A DNA stretch of 63,903 bases, filler included. It is 9 parts of 9 records of this genome, joined end to end, with 100 filler letters (N's around TTAATTAATTAA, not from the genome) between each part and the next. Parts side by side here need not be neighbours in the genome. Positions count along the whole stretch, not along the records: positions 28,358 to 40,182 come from SRR20825010_1858; 8 more parts are not named here. One strand, written 5' to 3'. The position numbers and the translations under genes were made by a program. Below the pieces are notes generated by a model. The model did not search any database. It was not told the DNA's origin and was given only the letters and a program-made list of their open reading frames with translations. Below are positions 21,698 to 36,206 of this stretch, piece by piece. The first letter of the stretch is position 1, and the number at the start of each line of letters is the position of its first letter.

Positions 21698-22069
21698 ATG
21701 GCGACCACTCACACAAAAGGCTTTTCCCGCGTTGTTTTCGCGACCTTTTTGAGCTTAGGGCTGGTTCCATCGACATATGCTTTTGCGGGTGATGTGCGGG
21801 CAACCAGCACCGTCATCATGAATGACAAGTTCCACACTAAAGACGAGTGGGGCGATAAGCTGATTTTGCCGAAAGATGGAAAGATCACTCGCGTGATGGA
21901 CGGTACTTACGGCTTTGATATCAAGACAGAGGCCGGCGTTCAGGTGGCGAGTTTTTTGGACCCGCAGGATGCCGTTGGTATGTCATTGCCTGCGGGCACC
22001 TATTTGCTTAATCCTTATGTCTGCAAGCGACATCGCCATCATCATATTGAAGTGACCGCAGCCTATTGA
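21698..22069 (+). CDS. Secreted hypothetical protein with C-terminal Cys/His-rich motif
   Basis: AGGGAG RBS, signal peptide ending AFA, C-terminal CKRHRHHH. Confidence 0.65.
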   Translation: MATTHTKGFSRVVFATFLSLGLVPSTYAFAGDVRATSTVIMNDKFHTKDEWGDKLILPKDGKITRVMDGTYGFDIKTEAGVQVASFLDPQDAVGMSLPAGTYLLNPYVCKRHRHHHIEVTAAY

Positions 22070-29255: not shown

Positions 29256-30248
29256 TCATGCAGACAGCTTGCGCGCTGGGCTTTCGCCATCAGCACCTGT
29301 TTTCGCCGCTTTGTCAGCGTTTACGGTGTAAACAGTTTTGCCACGCAATGAGAAGTAATCCCGGGCCATTGCGAAGTTTTCCGAATGCCCTGCATACAAC
29401 AGGCCGTTTGAATTCATCAGGGGGGCAAATCGTTTGAGAATTTGAAGCTGTACGTCTTTCTCAAAATAGATCATGACGTTTCTACAAAATATGGCATCAA
29501 AACCTGGGCGAAGTGACCACACATTGTCCATCAGGTTGAGCTTTCGAAAGGTCACCATGGCCTGCACTTCCGGGCGCACATGAATCATGCCGTCACTTTC
29601 GCCTTTGCCCTTGATGAAGTATTTTCGAATAATGTCTTCGGGAATTTTCTCGATCTGATCCATCCTGTAGACACCTTTCCTGGCATGTTCCAGCACTTTG
29701 GTGTCAATGTCGGTTGCCAGAATCCGCACGGGGGGATTCATGCTGTTGAAGGCCTCCATGGCAGTGATGGCCATGGTGTAGGGCTCTTCCCCGGTAGATG
29801 CGGCGCTGCACCACAATTCAATTCGAGCATTGCGCGACAACGATTGAAGTTGCTTTTTCAGAATCTCGAAGTGGTGTGCTTCTCGGTAAAACGAGGTCAG
29901 GTTGGTGGTCAGTGAATTGGTGAAGTGTTCCCATTCGGGGTTGCTGGAATTAAGTTCGAGCGCATCCAGATAGGAAGAAAAGCGGTTGTGCTTGCAGGCA
30001 CGCAGCCGCCGCGCCAGCCGGCTGTAGACCATGCTTTGCTTGCTGGGCGCCAGCGAGATCCCGGCAATTTTCAGAATCAACGCCCGCACACGGGCAAAAT
30101 CTTTTTCATTGAATTCAAATTCACGCTCGGCGTTGTCATCGCTTTGCAAACTAAGGTTCACCGCGGCAGCGGCCTGCTTTGCGTCCGCAACAGCATCGGT
30201 GCCGGATCGGGTTCTGGAAAATTCGAATTTCAATGGGGGACGATTCAT
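29256..30248 (-). CDS. cheR: Chemotaxis methyltransferase CheR
   Basis: LTTNLTSFYRE, WCSAASTGEEPY, ATDID, IFCRNVMIYF, GHSE. Confidence 0.95.
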   Translation of the reverse strand: MNRPPLKFEFSRTRSGTDAVADAKQAAAAVNLSLQSDDNAEREFEFNEKDFARVRALILKIAGISLAPSKQSMVYSRLARRLRACKHNRFSSYLDALELNSSNPEWEHFTNSLTTNLTSFYREAHHFEILKKQLQSLSRNARIELWCSAASTGEEPYTMAITAMEAFNSMNPPVRILATDIDTKVLEHARKGVYRMDQIEKIPEDIIRKYFIKGKGESDGMIHVRPEVQAMVTFRKLNLMDNVWSLRPGFDAIFCRNVMIYFEKDVQLQILKRFAPLMNSNGLLYAGHSENFAMARDYFSLRGKTVYTVNADKAAKTGADGESPARKLSA

Positions 30249-30433
30249 CTAGGGCCTTTGTCGCTGGGGGGGTTCACACAATTAGGTGGGTGGCCCGACA
30301 CGAATGAGTTCTATACCCTGTTATGTTCCGATAATATGATTGAAAGAATGCAAGGATTAAAACCTTGAAATGGTGTTAAATCTCGCTTTGATTCCGCGCA
30401 AAACAAGAAAGCCAATCAATAGGCGTACAAACA

Positions 30434-31972
30434 ATGAGTGAATCCAGAGGATTGCCCCCATCATTGTTGGACATCAGCAACTTTTCAGATGGTGGATTGA
30501 AAGTACTGGTGGTGGAAGACAATGATTCGGACTTTGAGCTGATGTGTTACCGCCTGAAACAGGGTGGGCTCAAATACACGGCCACCCGTGTTGACCGCAT
30601 CGATGATCTGCGCCGCTGCCTGGAGCACGAAGAATGGCAGGTGGTTATTTCTGATCACAACCTACCTGGCTTTGGATCCGAAGAAGCCTTGAAAATAGTT
30701 CGCGATTCAGGCCTGGATATTCCCTTCATTATTGTGTCAGGCAGTATTGGCGAACATGTGGCGGTCGAGGCCATGCGGGCCGGGGCTGACGACTATTTGA
30801 TGAAAGACAAAATGGCACGCTTGGTGCCTGCCATTGAACGGTCGCTTCGGGCGGCCAACGAACGGCGCAGCCTTGCTACGGCAGAACAGGCACAGCGGGA
30901 ATCCGAACGCAGGTTCGCCGCCATTGCAGAGAACATTCCCGGCATTATTTTCCAGATGCAATCCGGTCCATCCATGCCCCGCCCCACTGTGCCGTTTGTC
31001 AGCGAGGGTGTGGTGCGTTTGTTTGGGGTGCCGCCACGGCTTTTTCTGGAAAACCCCCACTACTTTTTCGAACAGTTTGAACCCGAAGATGCAGCCGCAC
31101 TGTTTGAACAGTTGATGGAACCACCGCGCCCTGGTGTGCCTGTGACTTGGGAAGGCCGCTTGAAGAACTATGGCAAGCGGCTTGACCGGTGGGTACTGAT
31201 GAATGCGGTGGCCAAACCGCGTGGAAACCTTTTTGTCTGGGATGGCGTGTTGCTGGATATTTCTGACCGCAAAGAAGCCGAGGAGCGGTTGGTCAGCGCT
31301 AAAACCGAATTGCGCCTGGTCACGACCGAGTTCGAGAAGCGGCGGGAACAGGAGCGCGGCGCAATTGCCCGGGAAATACACGATGACATGGGCGGTTCAC
31401 TGACCAAGCTGAAAGCCGATGTCGCATGGCTGAGCAAAACATTGGCACCCGACCCTGCCGTGCAGGAAAAACTGGATGACATGCTGGAGTTGATTGAACA
31501 CCTGTTGGCCAGCAGCCAAAGAATTTCAAAAGATTTGCGCCCCGGCATACTGGACTACGGCCTGATTCCAGCACTGGAATGGCAGATGGGCGACTTTCAG
31601 AAGCGTACCCAGATCGAAGGGACTTTCCAGTGCAATGTGGATGAACTGGAACTGGATGCCGAGAAAAATACGGCACTTTTTCGAATTCTGCAGGAGGCTT
31701 TGACCAATATCGTGAAGCACGCCCAAGCAACTAGGGTTGATGTGGAGTTGTTTGTGTCGGAAAATGAATTATCGTTAGAGATCCGTGACAATGGTCGCGG
31801 TATCGAGAATACTGACAAATTAAAAGAAGCATCATTTGGCCTGCGCGGCATGCAAGAACGGGTTGCTGCTTTTGAGGGCTGGGTAGATGTGAGCGGATCG
31901 CTGGGATCGGGTACGACGGTCATGGTTTCAATACCAAGAAGCAATCACACAGGTGAGGCAGATAATGATTAA
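30434..31972 (+). CDS. Sensor histidine kinase, REC-PAS-HisKA_3-HATPase
   Basis: N-terminal REC (VVED, VISDHNLP), PAS-like middle, IAREIHDDMG, QEALTNIVKHA, DNGRG, FGLRGMQER; no transmembrane helices. Confidence 0.9.
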   Translation: MSESRGLPPSLLDISNFSDGGLKVLVVEDNDSDFELMCYRLKQGGLKYTATRVDRIDDLRRCLEHEEWQVVISDHNLPGFGSEEALKIVRDSGLDIPFIIVSGSIGEHVAVEAMRAGADDYLMKDKMARLVPAIERSLRAANERRSLATAEQAQRESERRFAAIAENIPGIIFQMQSGPSMPRPTVPFVSEGVVRLFGVPPRLFLENPHYFFEQFEPEDAAALFEQLMEPPRPGVPVTWEGRLKNYGKRLDRWVLMNAVAKPRGNLFVWDGVLLDISDRKEAEERLVSAKTELRLVTTEFEKRREQERGAIAREIHDDMGGSLTKLKADVAWLSKTLAPDPAVQEKLDDMLELIEHLLASSQRISKDLRPGILDYGLIPALEWQMGDFQKRTQIEGTFQCNVDELELDAEKNTALFRILQEALTNIVKHAQATRVDVELFVSENELSLEIRDNGRGIENTDKLKEASFGLRGMQERVAAFEGWVDVSGSLGSGTTVMVSIPRSNHTGEADND

Positions 31973-32594
31973 GGTGTTGTTGGCAGATGACCATGCATTG
32001 CTTCGGGGCAGCCTGAAGCAATTGCTTGAAGACACGAATTTTGTGCAGGTGGTAGCCCAAGCCGGGGAATATTCCGAAATCATGAAAGCCATGGGTGCAC
32101 ACGATGTTGACCTGGCAATCCTGGACATTTCCATGCCGGGCAAAAATGGCGTGGACATTGTCAAAATTCTGAAAGACAAATACCCTGCCCTGAAAATCCT
32201 GATGTTGTCCATGCACCCGGAAGACCAGTATGCCGTGCGCTGCCTGAAAGCAGGCGCGTCGGGTTACCTGACGAAAAATACCGCCCCGGAAAAGCTGGTG
32301 GATGCCATACAAGTGATAGCTGCCGGGCGTAAATACATTACACCTGAGTTGGCTGAATCGCTGGCGAGCCACTTGACTGAAGATTCCGAAAAGCCCTTGC
32401 ACGCTTCGCTCAGTGACCGTGAATTTCAAACCATTCGCATGATTGCCGCTGGCAAGAAACTAAGCGAAATTGCCGATGAATTGTCTCTAAGCCCGAAAAC
32501 CGTCAGTGTTTACCGGGCACGCATTCTTGAAAAAATGCGCATGAAAACCAATGGTGAACTGACGCGGTATGCGTTGGAGAATGGGCTGATCTGA
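31965..32594 (+). CDS. NarL/UvrY-family response regulator
   Basis: LADDH, LDISMPG, LSDRE, LSPKTVSVYRARILEK. Confidence 0.92.
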   Translation: MIKVLLADDHALLRGSLKQLLEDTNFVQVVAQAGEYSEIMKAMGAHDVDLAILDISMPGKNGVDIVKILKDKYPALKILMLSMHPEDQYAVRCLKAGASGYLTKNTAPEKLVDAIQVIAAGRKYITPELAESLASHLTEDSEKPLHASLSDREFQTIRMIAAGKKLSEIADELSLSPKTVSVYRARILEKMRMKTNGELTRYALENGLI

Positions 32595-32599
32595 TTTCG

Positions 32600-32841
32600 T
32601 GCGCGGGTGTTGATGTTGGGTCAACTCGTCATGGGTTACTTGCTTCCGCACTGAAAACCGCTTGATCCCTTATTGAACGAAGGCTTTGCATTCACCCAAG
32701 CCCGACAACACTGATGGTCGGGCCTTGGGTGTCGCCTTGCGGCGAACATTAAAGCCTTGTTCAAGTGGGGCGGTTTTCTTGATGTGCGGAACAAGCAAAC
32801 CCACTACCGAGTTGACTGACAACCGGCATCGACGACGCGCA
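32600..32841 (-). repeat. Structured non-coding element, copy A (long stem + three-way junction)
   Basis: Nested inverted repeats GTCAACTCG/CGAGTTGAC, TTCCGCAC/GTGCGGAA, GAAAACCGC/GCGGTTTTC, TTGAAC/GTTCAA, AAGGCTTT/AAAGCCTT plus two terminal hairpins; homologous to copy B in opposite orientation; strand inferred. Confidence 0.8.
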
Positions 32842-32882
32842 GCAGCATCTCAATCCAACGATTTGTGTGACCCAATACGCCA

Positions 32883-33182
32883 TTGAATCGTCCCGCATTT
32901 CTACTCAAATTCAAACTAAACATTAATGATCCTTCAGAACCTGAATTTGCGGAACTTGAATTTACAAGAGGATGCATGCTGTTGCTTGAAGAAGCATTGA
33001 GCCATAACGCAGTCATGCGGATGAACGCGCAAATTTTAACTTTAAAACCTTTCTCAACTGAAATTCCGTATGGCTCCGTTTCACTGACGAAAGAGCCATT
33101 TAGCGGTGGAATAGCTGGAGGGTATTCGTTGATATTTAAAGTTAGCCGTGGGGCACAGGGAGACCAAGTTGAAATTAAATGA
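32883..33182 (+). CDS. AT-rich orphan ORF between the two structured elements
   Basis: 99 codons, TTG start, no clear RBS, no recognised motif. Confidence 0.35.
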   Translation: MNRPAFLLKFKLNINDPSEPEFAELEFTRGCMLLLEEALSHNAVMRMNAQILTLKPFSTEIPYGSVSLTKEPFSGGIAGGYSLIFKVSRGAQGDQVEIK

Positions 33183-33242
33183 GGCCGGTGCTTGCTTACA
33201 CGGCTCGGCCATCGCACCCACGATGGGCAGAAAGCAGCCGAA

Positions 33243-33450
33243 GTTCAGCCAACTCGGCAGTGGGTTTGCTTGCTTCCGCACTTCAAGAAAACCGCCCCGC
33301 TTGGGTTTATTCGCAGCGTTCGGCGTCAAGCCGACACTGAATCAGGCCATCTGTTTTGCCTGATTCGGTGAGCAAGAATAAATTCAAAAAGGGATACAGC
33401 GGTTTTCAGTGCGGAAGCAAGCAAACCCACGACGAGGTGGCATTGAAGCT
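33243..33450 (+). repeat. Structured non-coding element, copy B
   Basis: Perfect 23-bp inverted repeat 33260-33282/33408-33430, GAAAACCGC/GCGGTTTTC, TTGGGTTTATTC/GAATAAATTCAA, hairpins TCGGC-GTCAA-GCCGA and CACTGAATCAGGC-loop-GCCTGATTCGGTG. Confidence 0.8.
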
Positions 33451-33474
33451 ACAGCCCAATAAGGTCTAAACGAC

Positions 33475-34452
33475 TTAGCCGATGAAGTTAAACAGCGTTA
33501 ATTGTGAAACGCTGGCAAAGCTTTGCTGCGCGGCCTGAAGCTGCAACTGCCCTTGTGACAGCTCGCTGATGGCCTTGGCATAGTCCAGCCCCACCGCCTC
33601 GCCAGCAACGCGCTCCAGCTCCAGTTGGGCAGCCTGGTTGATTTGCTGCAGTGTTTCTACTTCACGCAAGCGCACACCTGCTTTGGTTCGCGAAATTTGC
33701 ACCTGGTCAAAAATATCGTCCAGCTGTGCGCCCTTGTCGTTGAAGGCTTTCAGGTATGTGTCTTGTGCTGTGGCACCCTCTTGCCCGTTGGGGTAAGCGG
33801 GGTTGCGCAGCAAGGCCACCGCATCGCGCAAAATGGCGAATGCATCTTCGTTGGTGTTGGGGTCTACAAATGCGTTCTGGCCGGTGATGTTCAGGTTTAC
33901 AAAACGACCACTGGCCACTTGGATTTCACGACCAATCACGGCTTCGCCAGCCGCGGCTGTGGTGGTTTCCAGAAATGTGCCGGTTATGCCCGGGCCCGGT
34001 GTTTGAAAGGGTTCACGATCCTGAAATGTTCCGGAAAACATGAAGTAGCCGTTTGCATCGGTGCGGTTGGCAATGCCCCGCAACTCTTCCATTCTACCTT
34101 CGATGTCTTGCGCAATAATTTCGCGGTCAGCGGGGCTCAAGGTGGCATTTCCTGCCTGCAAAAAGGCTTCCTTGATGGACACCATGATGTCGGAAGCGGA
34201 TTGCAAGGCCACATCCATTTGACCCAGCTGGTTGTTCACGTAGGTGATATTGCTTTGATAACTGTCGATTGTCTTTACACCGGCTTTGGCACCCAAAGCC
34301 ACTGACATGGCCAAAGGGTCGTCCGAAGGCTTCAGCACCCGAAGGCCGGTCGCCAACTGCCCCTGGATTTTGACCAGTTCAGTTTGCTGTTTGCTCATGC
34401 GGTCAGTGCTGAGCTTGAAATACTGGTTGGTGCTGATTCTGCCGATTGCCAT
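33475..34452 (-). CDS. flgL: Flagellar hook-associated protein 3
   Basis: RIST, QLATGLRVLKPSDDP, LDYAKAISEL, LTLFNFI. Confidence 0.93.
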   Translation of the reverse strand: MAIGRISTNQYFKLSTDRMSKQQTELVKIQGQLATGLRVLKPSDDPLAMSVALGAKAGVKTIDSYQSNITYVNNQLGQMDVALQSASDIMVSIKEAFLQAGNATLSPADREIIAQDIEGRMEELRGIANRTDANGYFMFSGTFQDREPFQTPGPGITGTFLETTTAAAGEAVIGREIQVASGRFVNLNITGQNAFVDPNTNEDAFAILRDAVALLRNPAYPNGQEGATAQDTYLKAFNDKGAQLDDIFDQVQISRTKAGVRLREVETLQQINQAAQLELERVAGEAVGLDYAKAISELSQGQLQLQAAQQSFASVSQLTLFNFIG

Positions 34453-34472
34453 AATTTTTCCTTGAAACCTGC

Positions 34473-36206
34473 TCAGAACATGCTGAGGATTTGGTCAAAC
34501 AATTCTTTGGACAGTGAAATGACTCGCCCGGAGGCCTGGTAAGCCTGCTGAAACTTGATCAGGTTGGCGGCCTCTTCATCCATGTTCACGCCCTGCAATG
34601 CATCGCGTGAGTCGGCAATCTGATTCAACACAGTTTCGCGCGATTCAGCAGCCAGATTGAATTCACGGGTTTTATTGCCCACCCGGCTGACCAGTTGATT
34701 GAAGCCATCCGAAATGGAAACACCTGCCGAGTTGTTGGACTGTGACAAGGTACGCGCGGTTTGCAGCGCCGCCACTTTCAGAATATTTTCGTTGTTGCCA
34801 ATGCTGGGGTTAACAGCGGAAGACGCTGCCACTTCAGAAGGTCGATCAATTGCAGTGCGCATGTTCAAGGCCGCTTCACGCACTGGCATCAGGGTAAAGC
34901 GATCACCTTCCTGCGGTGCGGCATTGTCAAGCTGGAAGCTCAGCAACGGTGCGCCTGCCGGGTCACGAATTTCATAGTAATCACCGCCAGGGTCTGTTAC
35001 CAATGCCGCAGGAACAAACGGACCATCCGTACCCATTTCGCGATAACGGGGCTGGCTCCCCACAATTTGAACTTCGTATTCAGCGGCGCCAAGCTTGGAC
35101 AAATCAAGACCGCGCATGGTGATTTGCGTGGGGTTGGCTGTGCTGTTGTTGATATTGGGCACAACGCGGGAAATGTCGTCTACAAAATTGCCACTGCTGC
35201 CAAAACTGAACAGTGCATTGCCCGGGTTGTTGTCCAGGTCCACACCCGTGGTTTGAATGTCATTGACTGCCTGGCCAATTCGCGCAGCCAGCAAGCTGAT
35301 TGTGTTTTGGTATTCCGTCAGTTCATTTTCACGAAAACTCAGGAAACCCGACAGTGCGCCATTGCCCAGACTTTTCGAATCAAAGGCGAGAAGGCGATCC
35401 TGGCCGTTTACTTTGCTTGTCATTCCAACCAGCAGGTTTTGTGGATCTTGTGGATCGACCTGTGTTTGAACCGGAAATTGTGTGGTGCCTACAACCAACG
35501 ACTGACCATTGGCCAAAAACAGGTTGGTTGAGCCATCGGCTACATCCACGCGGGTAACCTGTACCTGTTCAGACAACTGCAAAATCAACTGATCTCGGCG
35601 ATCCAGCAAATCGTTGGGTGGTCCACCGTTCGATGTCTGGTTCAGCGCAGTCACAATTTGATTGTTCAATGCTGCAATTTGTGAAGTCGCGTTGTTCAGC
35701 TGCTCCACCGTGTCGCGCACTTTCAAGTTCGTGGCAGTGCGCAATTCATCCATCACCGTGTTCAGCCCGTTGAATCGGGTGGACAGTGTGTCGGCCGCCG
35801 ACAAATAGTTTTGCCGGGCGGCCAGGTCGGCCGGGTTGGTCGACAGCGTTTGTGCCGCACCAAAGAAGATGCTGAGCGCACTGGACAGTCCCGAAGCATC
35901 ATCGGCAACCATGGCGTCTACGCGTGCAATTTGCTGGGCCTTGGCACCGAAGAAGGCAGCATCGGAGGTGGCCTTTTGTTCCTGTGCATTAATAAAATCA
36001 GAATACACACGCTGAACGGACGCAATATCAACGCCTTGGCCAATGTAGCCAATGTCGCTGCCCGTGGATGGGCGCGACTGTTGAATCACCTGCTGCCGGT
36101 TAAAACCAACGGTGTTGCTGTTCGCAATGTTGTGCGATGTGGTGGATAGCCCAGACCGGGCCGCATTTAGGCCGCTGAGCGCAATTCCGTAGACCGAGTT
36201 CGACAT
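34473..36206 (-). CDS. flgK: Flagellar hook-associated protein 1
   Basis: SGLNAA...HNIANSNTVGFNRQ, NDLLDRRDQL, GVNMDEEAANLIKFQQAYQAS. Confidence 0.94.
   Translation of the reverse strand: MSNSVYGIALSGLNAARSGLSTTSHNIANSNTVGFNRQQVIQQSRPSTGSDIGYIGQGVDIASVQRVYSDFINAQEQKATSDAAFFGAKAQQIARVDAMVADDASGLSSALSIFFGAAQTLSTNPADLAARQNYLSAADTLSTRFNGLNTVMDELRTATNLKVRDTVEQLNNATSQIAALNNQIVTALNQTSNGGPPNDLLDRRDQLILQLSEQVQVTRVDVADGSTNLFLANGQSLVVGTTQFPVQTQVDPQDPQNLLVGMTSKVNGQDRLLAFDSKSLGNGALSGFLSFRENELTEYQNTISLLAARIGQAVNDIQTTGVDLDNNPGNALFSFGSSGNFVDDISRVVPNINNSTANPTQITMRGLDLSKLGAAEYEVQIVGSQPRYREMGTDGPFVPAALVTDPGGDYYEIRDPAGAPLLSFQLDNAAPQEGDRFTLMPVREAALNMRTAIDRPSEVAASSAVNPSIGNNENILKVAALQTARTLSQSNNSAGVSISDGFNQLVSRVGNKTREFNLAAESRETVLNQIADSRDALQGVNMDEEAANLIKFQQAYQASGRVISLSKELFDQILSMF

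Follow-up and report, generated by a model that had tools for sequence, protein, structure and literature searches.

Two structured units between convergent genes

In the 63.9-kb window (the whole stretch of DNA analysed here), a response-regulator gene converges on a gene for a flagellin-domain protein, and between them lie two large hairpin-forming units, A and B, in opposite orientations on either side of a spacer. The features of the locus are as follows.

31953–32594, + strand: left flanking gene, response regulator with a LuxR/GerE HTH (Pfam Response_reg 1.2e-28, GerE 1.3e-16)
32620–32816, − strand: unit A, type 1, variant with a longer closing stem, 197 nt (covariance model R1, 167.2 bits)
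32817–33247, no strand: spacer between the 5′ ends of A and B, 431 nt, A+T-richer
32976–33182, + strand: 68-codon ORF within the spacer, in the frame of ORF 32883–33182, with an AGAGGA-like site upstream
33248–33441, + strand: unit B, type 1, 194 nt (covariance model R1, 195.4 bits)
33248–33298, + strand: 5′ arm of B, with the conserved asymmetric TTCAA bulge and the invariant GAAAAC helix strand (predicted structure, invariant columns)
33299–33389, + strand: inner three-way junction of B, with closing stem, small hairpin and long hairpin whose conserved loop contains CATCTGTTTTG
33390–33441, + strand: 3′ arm of B, with the GGGAT internal loop, the invariant GGTTTTC and a terminal unit ending in CGACGAGGTGGC
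33475–34452, − strand: right flanking gene, flagellin-N-domain protein (Pfam Flagellin_N 4.1e-21)

The right flanking gene is probably that of FlgL, the hook-filament junction protein, a FlgK_D1 domain being present in the neighbouring gene.

An earlier, sequence-only reading had placed two copies of a structured element here, and model R1 recovers both with the scores listed; the third-best R1 match in the window reaches 11.3 bits (E 0.24). In an inverted-repeat scan A and B match along arms of 45 nt (89%), 30 nt (93%) and 28 nt (93%), and the arms of B pair with each other over 23 nt (100%). The 25-mer and 24-mer quoted in that reading each occur exactly twice in the window, which none of 100 shuffles matched. 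The predicted folds likewise agree with what had been described. In the minimum free energy (MFE) structures of both units a long bulged basal stem leads to a three-way junction with a small hairpin and a long hairpin bearing the conserved loop, and the stem differences between A and B preserve pairing. Shuffled sequences fold far worse: none of 200 is as stable as B (−118.3 kcal/mol, z −14.1) and none of 200 as stable as A (−110.4 kcal/mol, z −10.2). The inner-domain variant of A is common to L024, L002, L037, L031 and L001. Each unit indeed lies beside the stop of a convergent gene in the same relative orientation, A 25 nt past the response-regulator stop and B 33 nt from that of the flagellin-like gene, both antisense to the gene concerned.

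The spacer has a GC content of 0.395–0.45, against about 0.5–0.55 in its surroundings. At 431 nt it is atypically long, the linkers of other dimers measuring 0–231 nt, and it has no match in any other locus compared. Its 68-codon ORF, which matches no Pfam family, may be cargo or spurious.

A Limnobacter-wide family of intergenic repeats

A and B are members of an undescribed, Limnobacter-wide family of hairpin-forming intergenic repeats. The additional copies that a covariance-model search was suggested for are abundant (28–86 matches per genome): 28–66 in each of five genomes, and 32 and 86 in two complete ones. Carriers make up 20 of 61 related genomes and all fall among the first 23 listed, of which G006, G011 and G019 have no match; copy number differs about threefold between species. 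The first reading could not assign the element to a known family, and no Rfam family matches it: cmscan of window positions 32000–34000 (E ≤ 10) yielded a single 19-bit RAGATH-19 match, which lies in the regulator gene and is irrelevant, and cmscan of the L062 and L112 loci, which hold types 1–4, a single 18-bit lncRNA match outside the elements (E ≤ 1). A distant-mode blastn search of a plasmid collection with unit B returned no match, and no published description of these Limnobacter repeats was found in the literature searched.

The basic unit is about 193 nt long (range 189–202 nt) and consists of a roughly 45-bp bulged stem and a three-way junction, with motifs in bulge and loop that do not vary. 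At least four subtypes can be told apart, their stems fully compensated, and all 45 sequences agree in the T/G columns of the apical loop. Ahead of each unit lies a semi-conserved leader of about 26 nt, and tandem copies of the last 20–45 nt often continue beyond the 3′ end; small palindromic units of 20–30 nt are seen at the 3′ ends. Deletion decay and chimeras are both seen among the units.

Units form heterotypic head-to-head dimers

With few exceptions the units stand in head-to-head (−,+) dimers of about 0.45 kb, their 5′ ends facing each other, and clusters are never larger than two full units. G014 and G018 together have 32 close (−,+) pairs and, as the sole other close arrangement, one (+,+) pair 522 nt apart. 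A dimer normally joins two different subtypes; in the first loci typed, 20 of 26 pairs were 1+2. The linkers are short, some of them 0–31 nt, and semi-conserved, as are the leaders. Most dimers are without cargo, and occasionally the linker holds cargo genes. Wide (−,+) pairs were considered as possible autonomous elements and rejected: those examined enclose an NlpC/P60 gene with a partner, a C92 amidase with a partner, or housekeeping genes, and no transposase.

According to gene calls based crudely on longest ORFs, 23 of 32 dimers are flanked by convergent ORFs and only one by divergent ORFs, and single units show no consistent orientation to the nearest gene. Since the units stand in inverted dimers, the model strand is read as its reverse complement from either neighbouring gene. 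This arrangement, together with sites that are filled, empty, truncated or swapped, speaks against a strand-specific 3′-UTR element, one of the possibilities raised at the outset.

Covariation and strand asymmetry

Compensatory changes are found at 36 of the 52 base pairs of the consensus. In a comparison of 371 pairs of copies with identities of 80% or more, 1301 double changes were observed against 370 expected, 82% of them keeping the pair, and the difference rate is 0.117 at paired sites versus 0.250 at unpaired sites. The original proposal that the structure is under selection is thus upheld for the family. As for the individual copies, single changes in the closest copy pairs disrupt pairing in 1966 cases and preserve it in 1746, roughly equal numbers, and so lend no support to selection acting on each resident copy.

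The two strands are not equivalent. With RNA parameters the model strand has the better fold of the two in 43 of 45 copies, with DNA parameters in 41 of 45, and it contains 164 G-T/U pairs as opposed to 99 on the opposite strand.

Turnover at orthologous sites

Across species, orthologous sites are found filled, empty, truncated or occupied by a different subtype. G001 has the element at the L004 site, where all five other genomes lack it; at the L062 site, G001 and G009 carry the dimer, G014 and G002 are empty and G003 retains a deleted remnant. The regulator–flgL site itself occurs in six states among seven genomes. There, relatives of the window have single or partial units orthologous to B: L022 has at this locus a unit 95.9% identical to B, and G005 keeps the 3′ half of B. 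We infer that this is an old site at which B is ancestral, A and the 431-nt spacer having been added only in the lineage of the window. DNA contigs from four runs break inside B because of the repeat, and neither joints nor excision forms were seen in them.

The subtypes differ in how recently they have been active. Type-3 copies in G014, about 15 of them, are nearly identical, pointing to recent multiplication. Types 1 and 2 show no recent activity, the best within-genome pair in G001 being 88.7% identical. Between species, type-3/4 modules are 90–97% identical, compared with 79–89% for the flanking genes and 53–65% for third codon positions. Neither a target-site duplication nor a fixed target motif was seen at two filled/empty sites, where the flanks are very diverged and the ends blurred by tandem units; the flanks beyond the 3′ ends have no fixed motif.

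Dimer polarity follows replication

In two complete genomes, with dnaA at position 1, dimer polarity follows the direction of replication. Co-orientation with the fork was found for 23 of 30 type-1+2 dimers (p 0.005), for 18 of 20 single matches in G014 (p 4e-4) and for 14 of 15 type-3 composites, including all seven in convergent contexts. Taken alone, G018 shows a modest bias, both for dimers (17/24, p 0.06) and for single matches (23/34, p 0.06). IS families that make no use of single strands can also be oriented with replication (PMC3971601). Because dimer polarity follows replication, a single-stranded DNA substrate is the best fit among the readings first put forward. That reading was right in this respect; of 16 carrier genomes, however, 15 lack the partner it had named, a RAYT or other HUH enzyme.

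Search for a mobilising enzyme

The Pfam family Y1_Tnp (PF01797) is missing from those 15 carrier genomes, both complete ones included, although the same search finds matches in 6 of 14 control genomes, E. coli among them. The only Y1 gene, in G016, belongs to an ordinary IS200/IS605 element, has a TnpB-like ORF as its neighbour and does not resemble the repeats. IS110 was found in none of 16 genomes of the genus, Y2_Tnp (IS91-type) in one genome and DDE_Tnp_1 in only one of five. No transposase is enclosed by any of the (−,+) pairs examined. Of the rve matches, those followed belong to a conserved Tn7-like cluster next to gyrB in G014, which was dismissed because it ends in A+T-rich repeats with no relation to the element.

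Comparison with known repeats and mobile elements

ERIC/IRU, Correia (NEMIS) and MITE sequences are palindromic, non-coding, genus-restricted long hairpins of 100–200 nt beside genes, and to our knowledge no cognate transposase has been identified for ERIC/IRU, Correia and similar repeats. The Limnobacter repeat resembles all of these in being palindromic, non-coding, genus-restricted and without a cognate transposase that we could find. Unlike ERIC and Correia, it is normally a heterotypic dimer, has a three-way junction with an invariant apical loop and shows fork polarity; moreover, no TA or other target duplication was seen at two Limnobacter sites, whose flanks have diverged. Several hallmarks of MITEs are present: the ends of the dimer are inverted 3′ arms, its length of about 0.45 kb is below the roughly 600 bp expected of MITEs, the dimers checked contain no ORF, and orthologous sites are polymorphic for presence and absence. 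A parent autonomous IS with the same ends was found in none of the wide (−,+) pairs examined.

Integron attC sites are folded single strands recognised by their structure, with asymmetric extrahelical bases and compensated stems of variable sequence. The Limnobacter units share these structural features and may be recognised in a similar way. However, attC sites form same-orientation arrays, one per cassette, next to an integrase, whereas the Limnobacter units are dispersed inverted dimers, mostly without cargo. An integron attC, a retron and a CRISPR locus were set aside on arrangement alone.

BIMEs are extragenic imperfect palindromes clustered in alternating orientation (PMC2817692), and REP sequences are linked to RAYTs (PMC6006769). 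Like the REP/BIME system, the Limnobacter family is multi-copy and extragenic, has alternating units and characteristic linkers, combines two unit subtypes, lies mainly at gene ends, and persists at its sites while its sequences homogenise (PMC2817692). The differences are equally clear. A REP is a 20–40-nt hairpin and the Limnobacter unit an approximately 193-nt structure with a three-way junction; only head-to-head dimers occur, with no longer alternating arrays and no RAYT; and fork polarity and tandem 3′-end units are peculiar to the Limnobacter side of the comparison. In IS200/IS605 elements, orientation is tied to the lagging-strand template (PMC6006769, PMC5027513). The Limnobacter dimers share with these elements and with PATEs two different hairpins at the ends on one strand, a lagging-template-linked orientation and the lack of obvious target duplications. 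In contrast to IS200/IS605, each of their hairpins is a full palindrome and 5–10 times as large, TnpA-Y1 is lacking in 15 of 16 carriers, and no conserved tetranucleotide target was found.

Discussion

Taken together, our results make it probable that A and B represent a non-autonomous, single-strand-folding DNA repeat of the REP/BIME/MITE kind. Such an element would spread and be homogenised as DNA, and selection would act on the single strand in its folded form, as exposed at the fork during replication, with the best-folding strand of types 2/3 on the lagging-strand template. This strand may be recognised, via the conserved loop and bulge, by a trans-acting enzyme other than Y1/Y2 HUH or IS110. 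A probable by-product is that transcripts of both convergent genes are ended or stabilised by the hairpins.

A more far-reaching version, which we put forward tentatively and regard as rather unlikely, is that the dimers are the non-autonomous form of a fork-coupled single-strand mobile element, whose large three-way-junction hairpins would be recognised, by way of the invariant apical loop and bulge, by an enzyme outside Y1/Y2 HUH, IS110 and the common DDE families, possibly a conserved host protein. If true, this would amount to a new transposition or copy mechanism, also capable of capturing small cargo such as the peptidase/partner gene pairs and perhaps the 431-nt spacer of the window.

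Could the by-product instead be the function? On such an account each unit would be a host-selected RNA hairpin at the end of a gene, one unit per gene, acting as a bidirectional terminator or insulator, a block to 3′ exonucleases or an RNase III site. The preference of dimers for convergent ORFs, tens of nucleotides from the stops, would fit, as would the conservation of the repeats between species, which far exceeds that of synonymous sites. Their most invariant part, the GAAAAC...GGTTTTC helix around a GC-rich base, recalls the A/U tracts of bidirectional terminators, and, read from the adjacent gene, the TTCAA bulge extends the U-rich run to GGTTTTCTTGAA. Yet these flanks enclose, ahead of the U-rich run, a junction domain of about 115 nt and not a simple terminator stem, and a consensus scan of 32400–33600 yields 2 terminator-like sites against a shuffle mean of 1.6. 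The empty sites point both ways: at the L004 site four of the five element-free genomes have a canonical bidirectional terminator (A-tract, GC-hairpin, T-tract) in its place, but the other empty site has none, with intergenic gaps of 16–19 nt. Finally, a gene-end function assigns no role to the 35-bp outer stem, the apical loop, the pairing of subtypes, the tandem 3′ units or the fork polarity, and the inconsistent orientation of single units to the nearest gene does not suit it either. We therefore consider it improbable as the primary explanation.

Alternatively, the polarity relative to the fork might mark a host DNA signal on the lagging-strand template, for instance a hairpin that serves for loading or restart, or one that is bound by a nucleoid or segregation protein. 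The conserved loop and bulge do suggest sequence-specific recognition by a protein, and high cross-species conservation in the absence of any transposase found would be natural for such a signal. Its sites, however, are dispensable, with empty or truncated orthologues; G006, G011 and G019 are without a match and copy number varies about threefold; and the turnover of subtypes, together with the recent burst of a single one, looks like selfish spread. The chances of this explanation appear slim.

A dedicated ncRNA gene for the units, as first envisaged, is unlikely, considering the inverted dimers, the variation of sites between species and the fact that no promoter or terminator consensus stands out. 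In its specific form, a multi-copy sRNA family in which each unit is its own gene transcribed outward from the linker, this idea could draw on the better folding and more numerous G-U pairs of the model strand (43 of 45 copies), the conserved loops and bulges, the ~26-nt leader and the missing Rfam match. However, the strand asymmetry is equally present with DNA parameters. Neither the window spacer nor the leaders contain a sigma-70-like promoter, no terminator follows the 3′ ends, and linkers of 0–31 nt are too short for two divergent promoters. Decay by deletion, chimeras and tens of copies with presence/absence polymorphism and fork polarity are likewise atypical of sRNA genes, making an sRNA family very doubtful.

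Least credible of all is a REPIN-type population mobilised by a RAYT (TnpA-REP) or an IS200/IS605 TnpA: extragenic hairpin substrates in inverted doublets, REP-sized palindromes of 20–30 nt at the 3′ ends and a polarity that puts the folding strand on the lagging-strand template, as in IS608/ISDra2 (PMC6006769), are set against units about ten times the length of a REP, a PF01797 search that works in controls and comes up empty in 15 of 16 carriers, and a single Y1 gene, in G016, which sits beside a TnpB-like ORF and is unlike the repeats.

If we return to the preferred reading, a DNA repeat mobilised in trans, the strong covariation documented here in what is most likely a DNA repeat and not an RNA gene calls for caution in covariation-based discovery of ncRNAs. 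The combination of subtype pairing, fork polarity and conservation above that of synonymous sites, without a RAYT or IS partner, makes the family a tractable case for studying how orphan repeats spread, and likewise a tractable test of whether orphan palindromic repeats are maintained by the cell. Limnobacter is a common freshwater and marine genus, and in its genomes these large structured repeats fill many of the gaps at gene ends and break the assemblies.

A multicopy family of structured repeats in Limnobacter

The two folded elements of the window, A and B, belong to a multicopy family and are not a lone pair. They lie among the following features:

29256-30248 (-): CheR methyltransferase
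30434-31972 (+): hybrid histidine kinase with receiver domain
32620-32816 (-): unit A, covariance model R1, 167.2 bits
32976-33182 (+): 68-codon ORF with an AGAGGA-like site upstream, within the spacer 32817-33247
33248-33441 (+): unit B, covariance model R1, 195.4 bits
34473-36206 (-): FlgK

A scan of species-representative genomes with an 18-mer from the 3' arm gave 84 stretches; by BLAST, similarity extends over 100 nt or more at 51 places, every one in Limnobacter records or in MAGs labelled Burkholderiales or 'Gammaproteobacteria'. Pantoea, archaeal and other records were rejected as carriers, having only a chance 20-25-nt word in common. An alignment of 45 well-formed copies, from which R1 was built, has 52 consensus pairs, 36 of them with pair-keeping changes on both sides. 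With 150 candidates scored in each, five Limnobacter genomes gave at least 66, 34, 53, 60 and 28 R1 matches, and the complete genomes G014 and G018 at least 32 and 86 at E<=1e-8; these figures hold for the genomes searched and should not be read as exact copy numbers. Any R1 match at all was found in 20 of 61 relatives of genome G001; these carriers all fall within the first 23 genomes listed (three of the 23 have no match), with none among those listed later. A reading made from sequence alone had proposed a covarying structure under selection that it could assign to no known family. The compensated pairs (36/52) bear out the first part, and an Rfam search, which gave nothing for any subtype, agrees with the second.

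Within the window, each motif quoted in the sequence-only reading indeed occurs exactly twice, and none occurs in any of 100 shuffles. A repeat scan recovered the arm matches between A and B as well as a perfect 23-nt self-complement in B. Both units adopt the fold that had been described (a bulged basal stem, a three-way junction, a small hairpin and a long hairpin with a conserved loop), at -118.3 kcal/mol (z -14.1) for B and -110.4 kcal/mol (z -10.2) for A, each unmatched by 200 shuffles. Nothing comparable exists elsewhere in the window, the next R1 match scoring 11.3 bits (E 0.24). This weak match, at 21807-21906 (-), spans the whole model within only 100 nt and is possibly a heavily deleted remnant, or chance.

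The proposed placement also holds: each unit adjoins the stop of a neighbouring gene and is antisense to it, A at 25 nt from a LuxR-type response regulator and B at 33 nt from a flagellin-like gene, probably flgL. The surroundings (29256-36206) form a chemotaxis/flagellar neighbourhood of CheR, the hybrid kinase, the regulator, the FlgL candidate and FlgK. Contigs from four metagenome studies run in the same order from the regulator through A and the spacer into the beginning of B, so the arrangement does not stem from faulty assembly of a single record. The spacer has no match in the other loci fetched and is missing at the same site in relatives; its ORF belongs to no Pfam family, and the insert could be captured cargo or non-coding filler.

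Unit anatomy and subtypes

The family comprises at least four subtypes. Type 1, to which A and B belong, and type 2 disagree at roughly half the positions of the outer stem as well as in the GAAAACC-GC/TG helix, every difference being compensated; type 3 consists of type-2 arms around a different three-way junction, and the more distant type 4 is the partner of type 3. Nearly or fully invariant across subtypes are the asymmetric TTCAA bulge, the GAAAAC/GGTTTTC helix, the CCC/GGG step and the apical loop ..TGTTT(T/A)G. Each 5' end is preceded by a leader, semi-conserved and about 26 nt long, and at many 3' ends the last 20-45 nt recur one to four times in tandem beyond the unit. Several type-1 leaders (L031, L045 and others among the public loci) contain GCTGGTGG, which we take to be the E. 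coli Chi octamer, or a near variant. Compared with its complement, the strand described by R1 has the better fold in 43 of 45 copies under RNA parameters and in 41 of 45 under DNA parameters, and carries 164 G-T/U pairs against 99.

Units join 5' end to 5' end. All 32 close pairs in G014 and G018 are (-,+), with gaps of 55-231 nt, the sole other close arrangement being one (+,+) pair 522 nt apart. The first loci set, fished with a type-1 word and thus biased towards type 1, likewise yielded 26 (-,+) pairs out of 26: 20 of types 1+2, five with one untyped unit and a single 1+1 pair, which is A/B. Seemingly single type-3 units in G014 carry a type-4 partner missed by R1. The window pair is therefore atypical twice, in having two type-1 units and an A+T-richer linker of 431 nt.

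Two long linkers hold gene pairs in the usual place of the short linker, between (-) and (+) units: an NlpC/P60 gene with an unannotated 171-aa partner (L011:2029-3097, orthologous in L085) and a C92 permuted-papain amidase with an unannotated 204-aa partner (L167:1226-2388). Both look like effector/immunity-style cassettes framed by repeats. Dimers also decay, as seen at L003:3074-3265, L050:7372-7559, L083:294-487, L007:154-255 and L123. In some products a type-1 3' arm (reverse complement) is joined to the inner domain and 3' arm of type 2, a pattern that would fit deletion across short direct repeats in the closing stems; in others a unit has lost its entire junction domain.

Genomic context and turnover

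By crude longest-ORF calls, the 32 dimers of G014 and G018 lie mostly between convergent ORFs (23), less often between co-directional (8) and only once between divergent ones. Occupancy varies among genomes. At the L004 site, the G001 unit is missing from all five other genomes, four of which have a textbook bidirectional terminator at that place. At L062, G001 and G009 have a dimer, G014 and G002 gaps of 16-19 nt, and G003 an internally deleted remnant; at L020, G001 has one unit, and G003, G004 and G014 two. At the window's own site, L022, the nearest relative among public records, carries B without a partner (95.9% identity), G005 retains just the 3' half of B, and in G001-G004 a type-1 unit or its remnant is accompanied by a type-2, type-3 or type-4 unit; A with its 431-nt spacer occurs in the window only. 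By this comparison B appears to be old at the site, and we infer that it would be the resident unit, with A and the spacer as later arrivals.

Between the species compared (two close pairs left out), flgL and the regulator agree at only 53-65% of third codon positions, yet units from different loci attain 85-97% identity across species. Where the flanking genes of two species share 79-89% identity, their type-3/4 modules share 90-97%; such modules include L107-L122 and L124 of G014, with matches in G002-G004 and G009. Outer arms and inner domains also appear in new combinations at one orthologous site. The high identity reflects either strong sequence constraint or continual replacement/homogenisation, possibly with exchange between species. 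Types 1 and 2 are old within genomes: in G001 the best pair reaches 88.7% identity and the median is 73.5%. In G014, type 3 numbers about 15 near-identical copies; all 15 composites sit no more than about 1.06 Mb from the origin, and the third nearest the terminus has none.

In a set of 371 copy pairs with at least 80% identity, 1301 double changes fall in base pairs where 370 were expected, 82% of them keeping the pairing, and paired sites differ at a rate of 0.117 against 0.250 for unpaired ones; because the copies are related, these pair statistics, like the fold statistics, are descriptive. Single changes are split roughly evenly between those that break a pair (1966) and those that keep it (1746), and the closest copy pairs show almost no double changes. 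The structure is thus selected along the family's lineages; constraint on each resident copy does not follow from these counts.

Orientation relative to replication

In both complete chromosomes dnaA is at position 1, and we assumed the terminus to lie near the midpoint. The lagging-strand template is the top strand of each replichore.

Orientation of units and dimers relative to the replication fork
G014, matches outside detected dimers: 18/20 co-oriented, p 4e-4
G014, type-3 composites: 14/15 co-oriented, p 0.001
G014, type-3 composites between convergent genes: 7/7 co-oriented, p 0.016
G018, singles: 23/34 co-oriented, p 0.06
G014, type-1+2 dimers, type-2 forward strand on the fork's top strand: 6/6, p 0.03
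G018, type-1+2 dimers, type-2 forward strand on the fork's top strand: 17/24, p 0.06
G014 and G018 together, type-1+2 dimers: 23/30 co-oriented, p 0.005

Because gene direction cannot set polarity between convergent genes, the seven composites in that context separate polarity from transcription. IS608/ISDra2 are described as targeting the lagging-strand template (PMC6006769), and an orientation linked to replication is also reported for other IS families (PMC3971601). The bias therefore indicates a link with replication in general rather than single-strand transposition in particular.

Search for a partner enzyme

For a RAYT/HUH transposase, one of the possible partners named in the sequence-only reading, the search was negative in all but one genome: Y1_Tnp (RAYT/IS200) is missing from 15 of the 16 carrier genomes, in a search that does match control genomes, and the one hit is an ordinary tnpA-tnpB element with no relation to the repeats. 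Y2_Tnp occurs in one genome only, IS110 in none of 16 genus genomes, DDE_Tnp_1 in one of five and rve with 1-4 matches per genome; the wide (-,+) pairs examined enclose no transposase.

Both complete genomes have a conserved Tn7-like set (TnsA-like, rve/Mu-type TnsB-like, TniB, TniQ) right downstream of dnaA-dnaN-gyrB, in G014 at L184:7885-13499, about 8-13 kb from dnaA, with a similar rve ORF at G018:C1:10794. This cluster, the only rve cluster inspected, was rejected as a partner, its A+T-rich end repeats being unrelated to the hairpin family.

Possible mechanism and relation to known repeats

The element is a modular, structured, non-coding repeat that forms polar heterodimers at gene ends and turns over between species, with at least one recent burst. 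In its working it comes closest to REP/BIME clusters and to the large palindromic repeats ERIC and Correia, or to MITEs. It differs, however, from REPs in size, from REP/RAYT systems in having no cognate RAYT, from MITEs in having no parent IS among the families searched and from IS200/IS605 derivatives in having no cognate TnpA. We lean, with moderate confidence, towards a REP/BIME/MITE-like class of element that would propagate as DNA, and hold the details more loosely: the selected object may be a folded single strand at the replication fork, whose conserved loop and bulge would be read by a putative protein.

A role as a gene-end hairpin is plausible, either secondary to propagation or instead of it, given where the units are placed, the terminator found where one site is empty and the resemblance of the invariant helix to an A-tract with its U-tract, but it leaves the outer stem, the subtype rule, the tandem ends and the polarity unexplained. 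Least likely of these readings is an independent sRNA gene.

We found no published description of the family in the literature on Limnobacter and repeats, and conclude that it is real and undescribed. What is new here is the absence of known transposases, conservation above that of synonymous sites, a rule for the pairing of subtypes and a polarity relative to replication.
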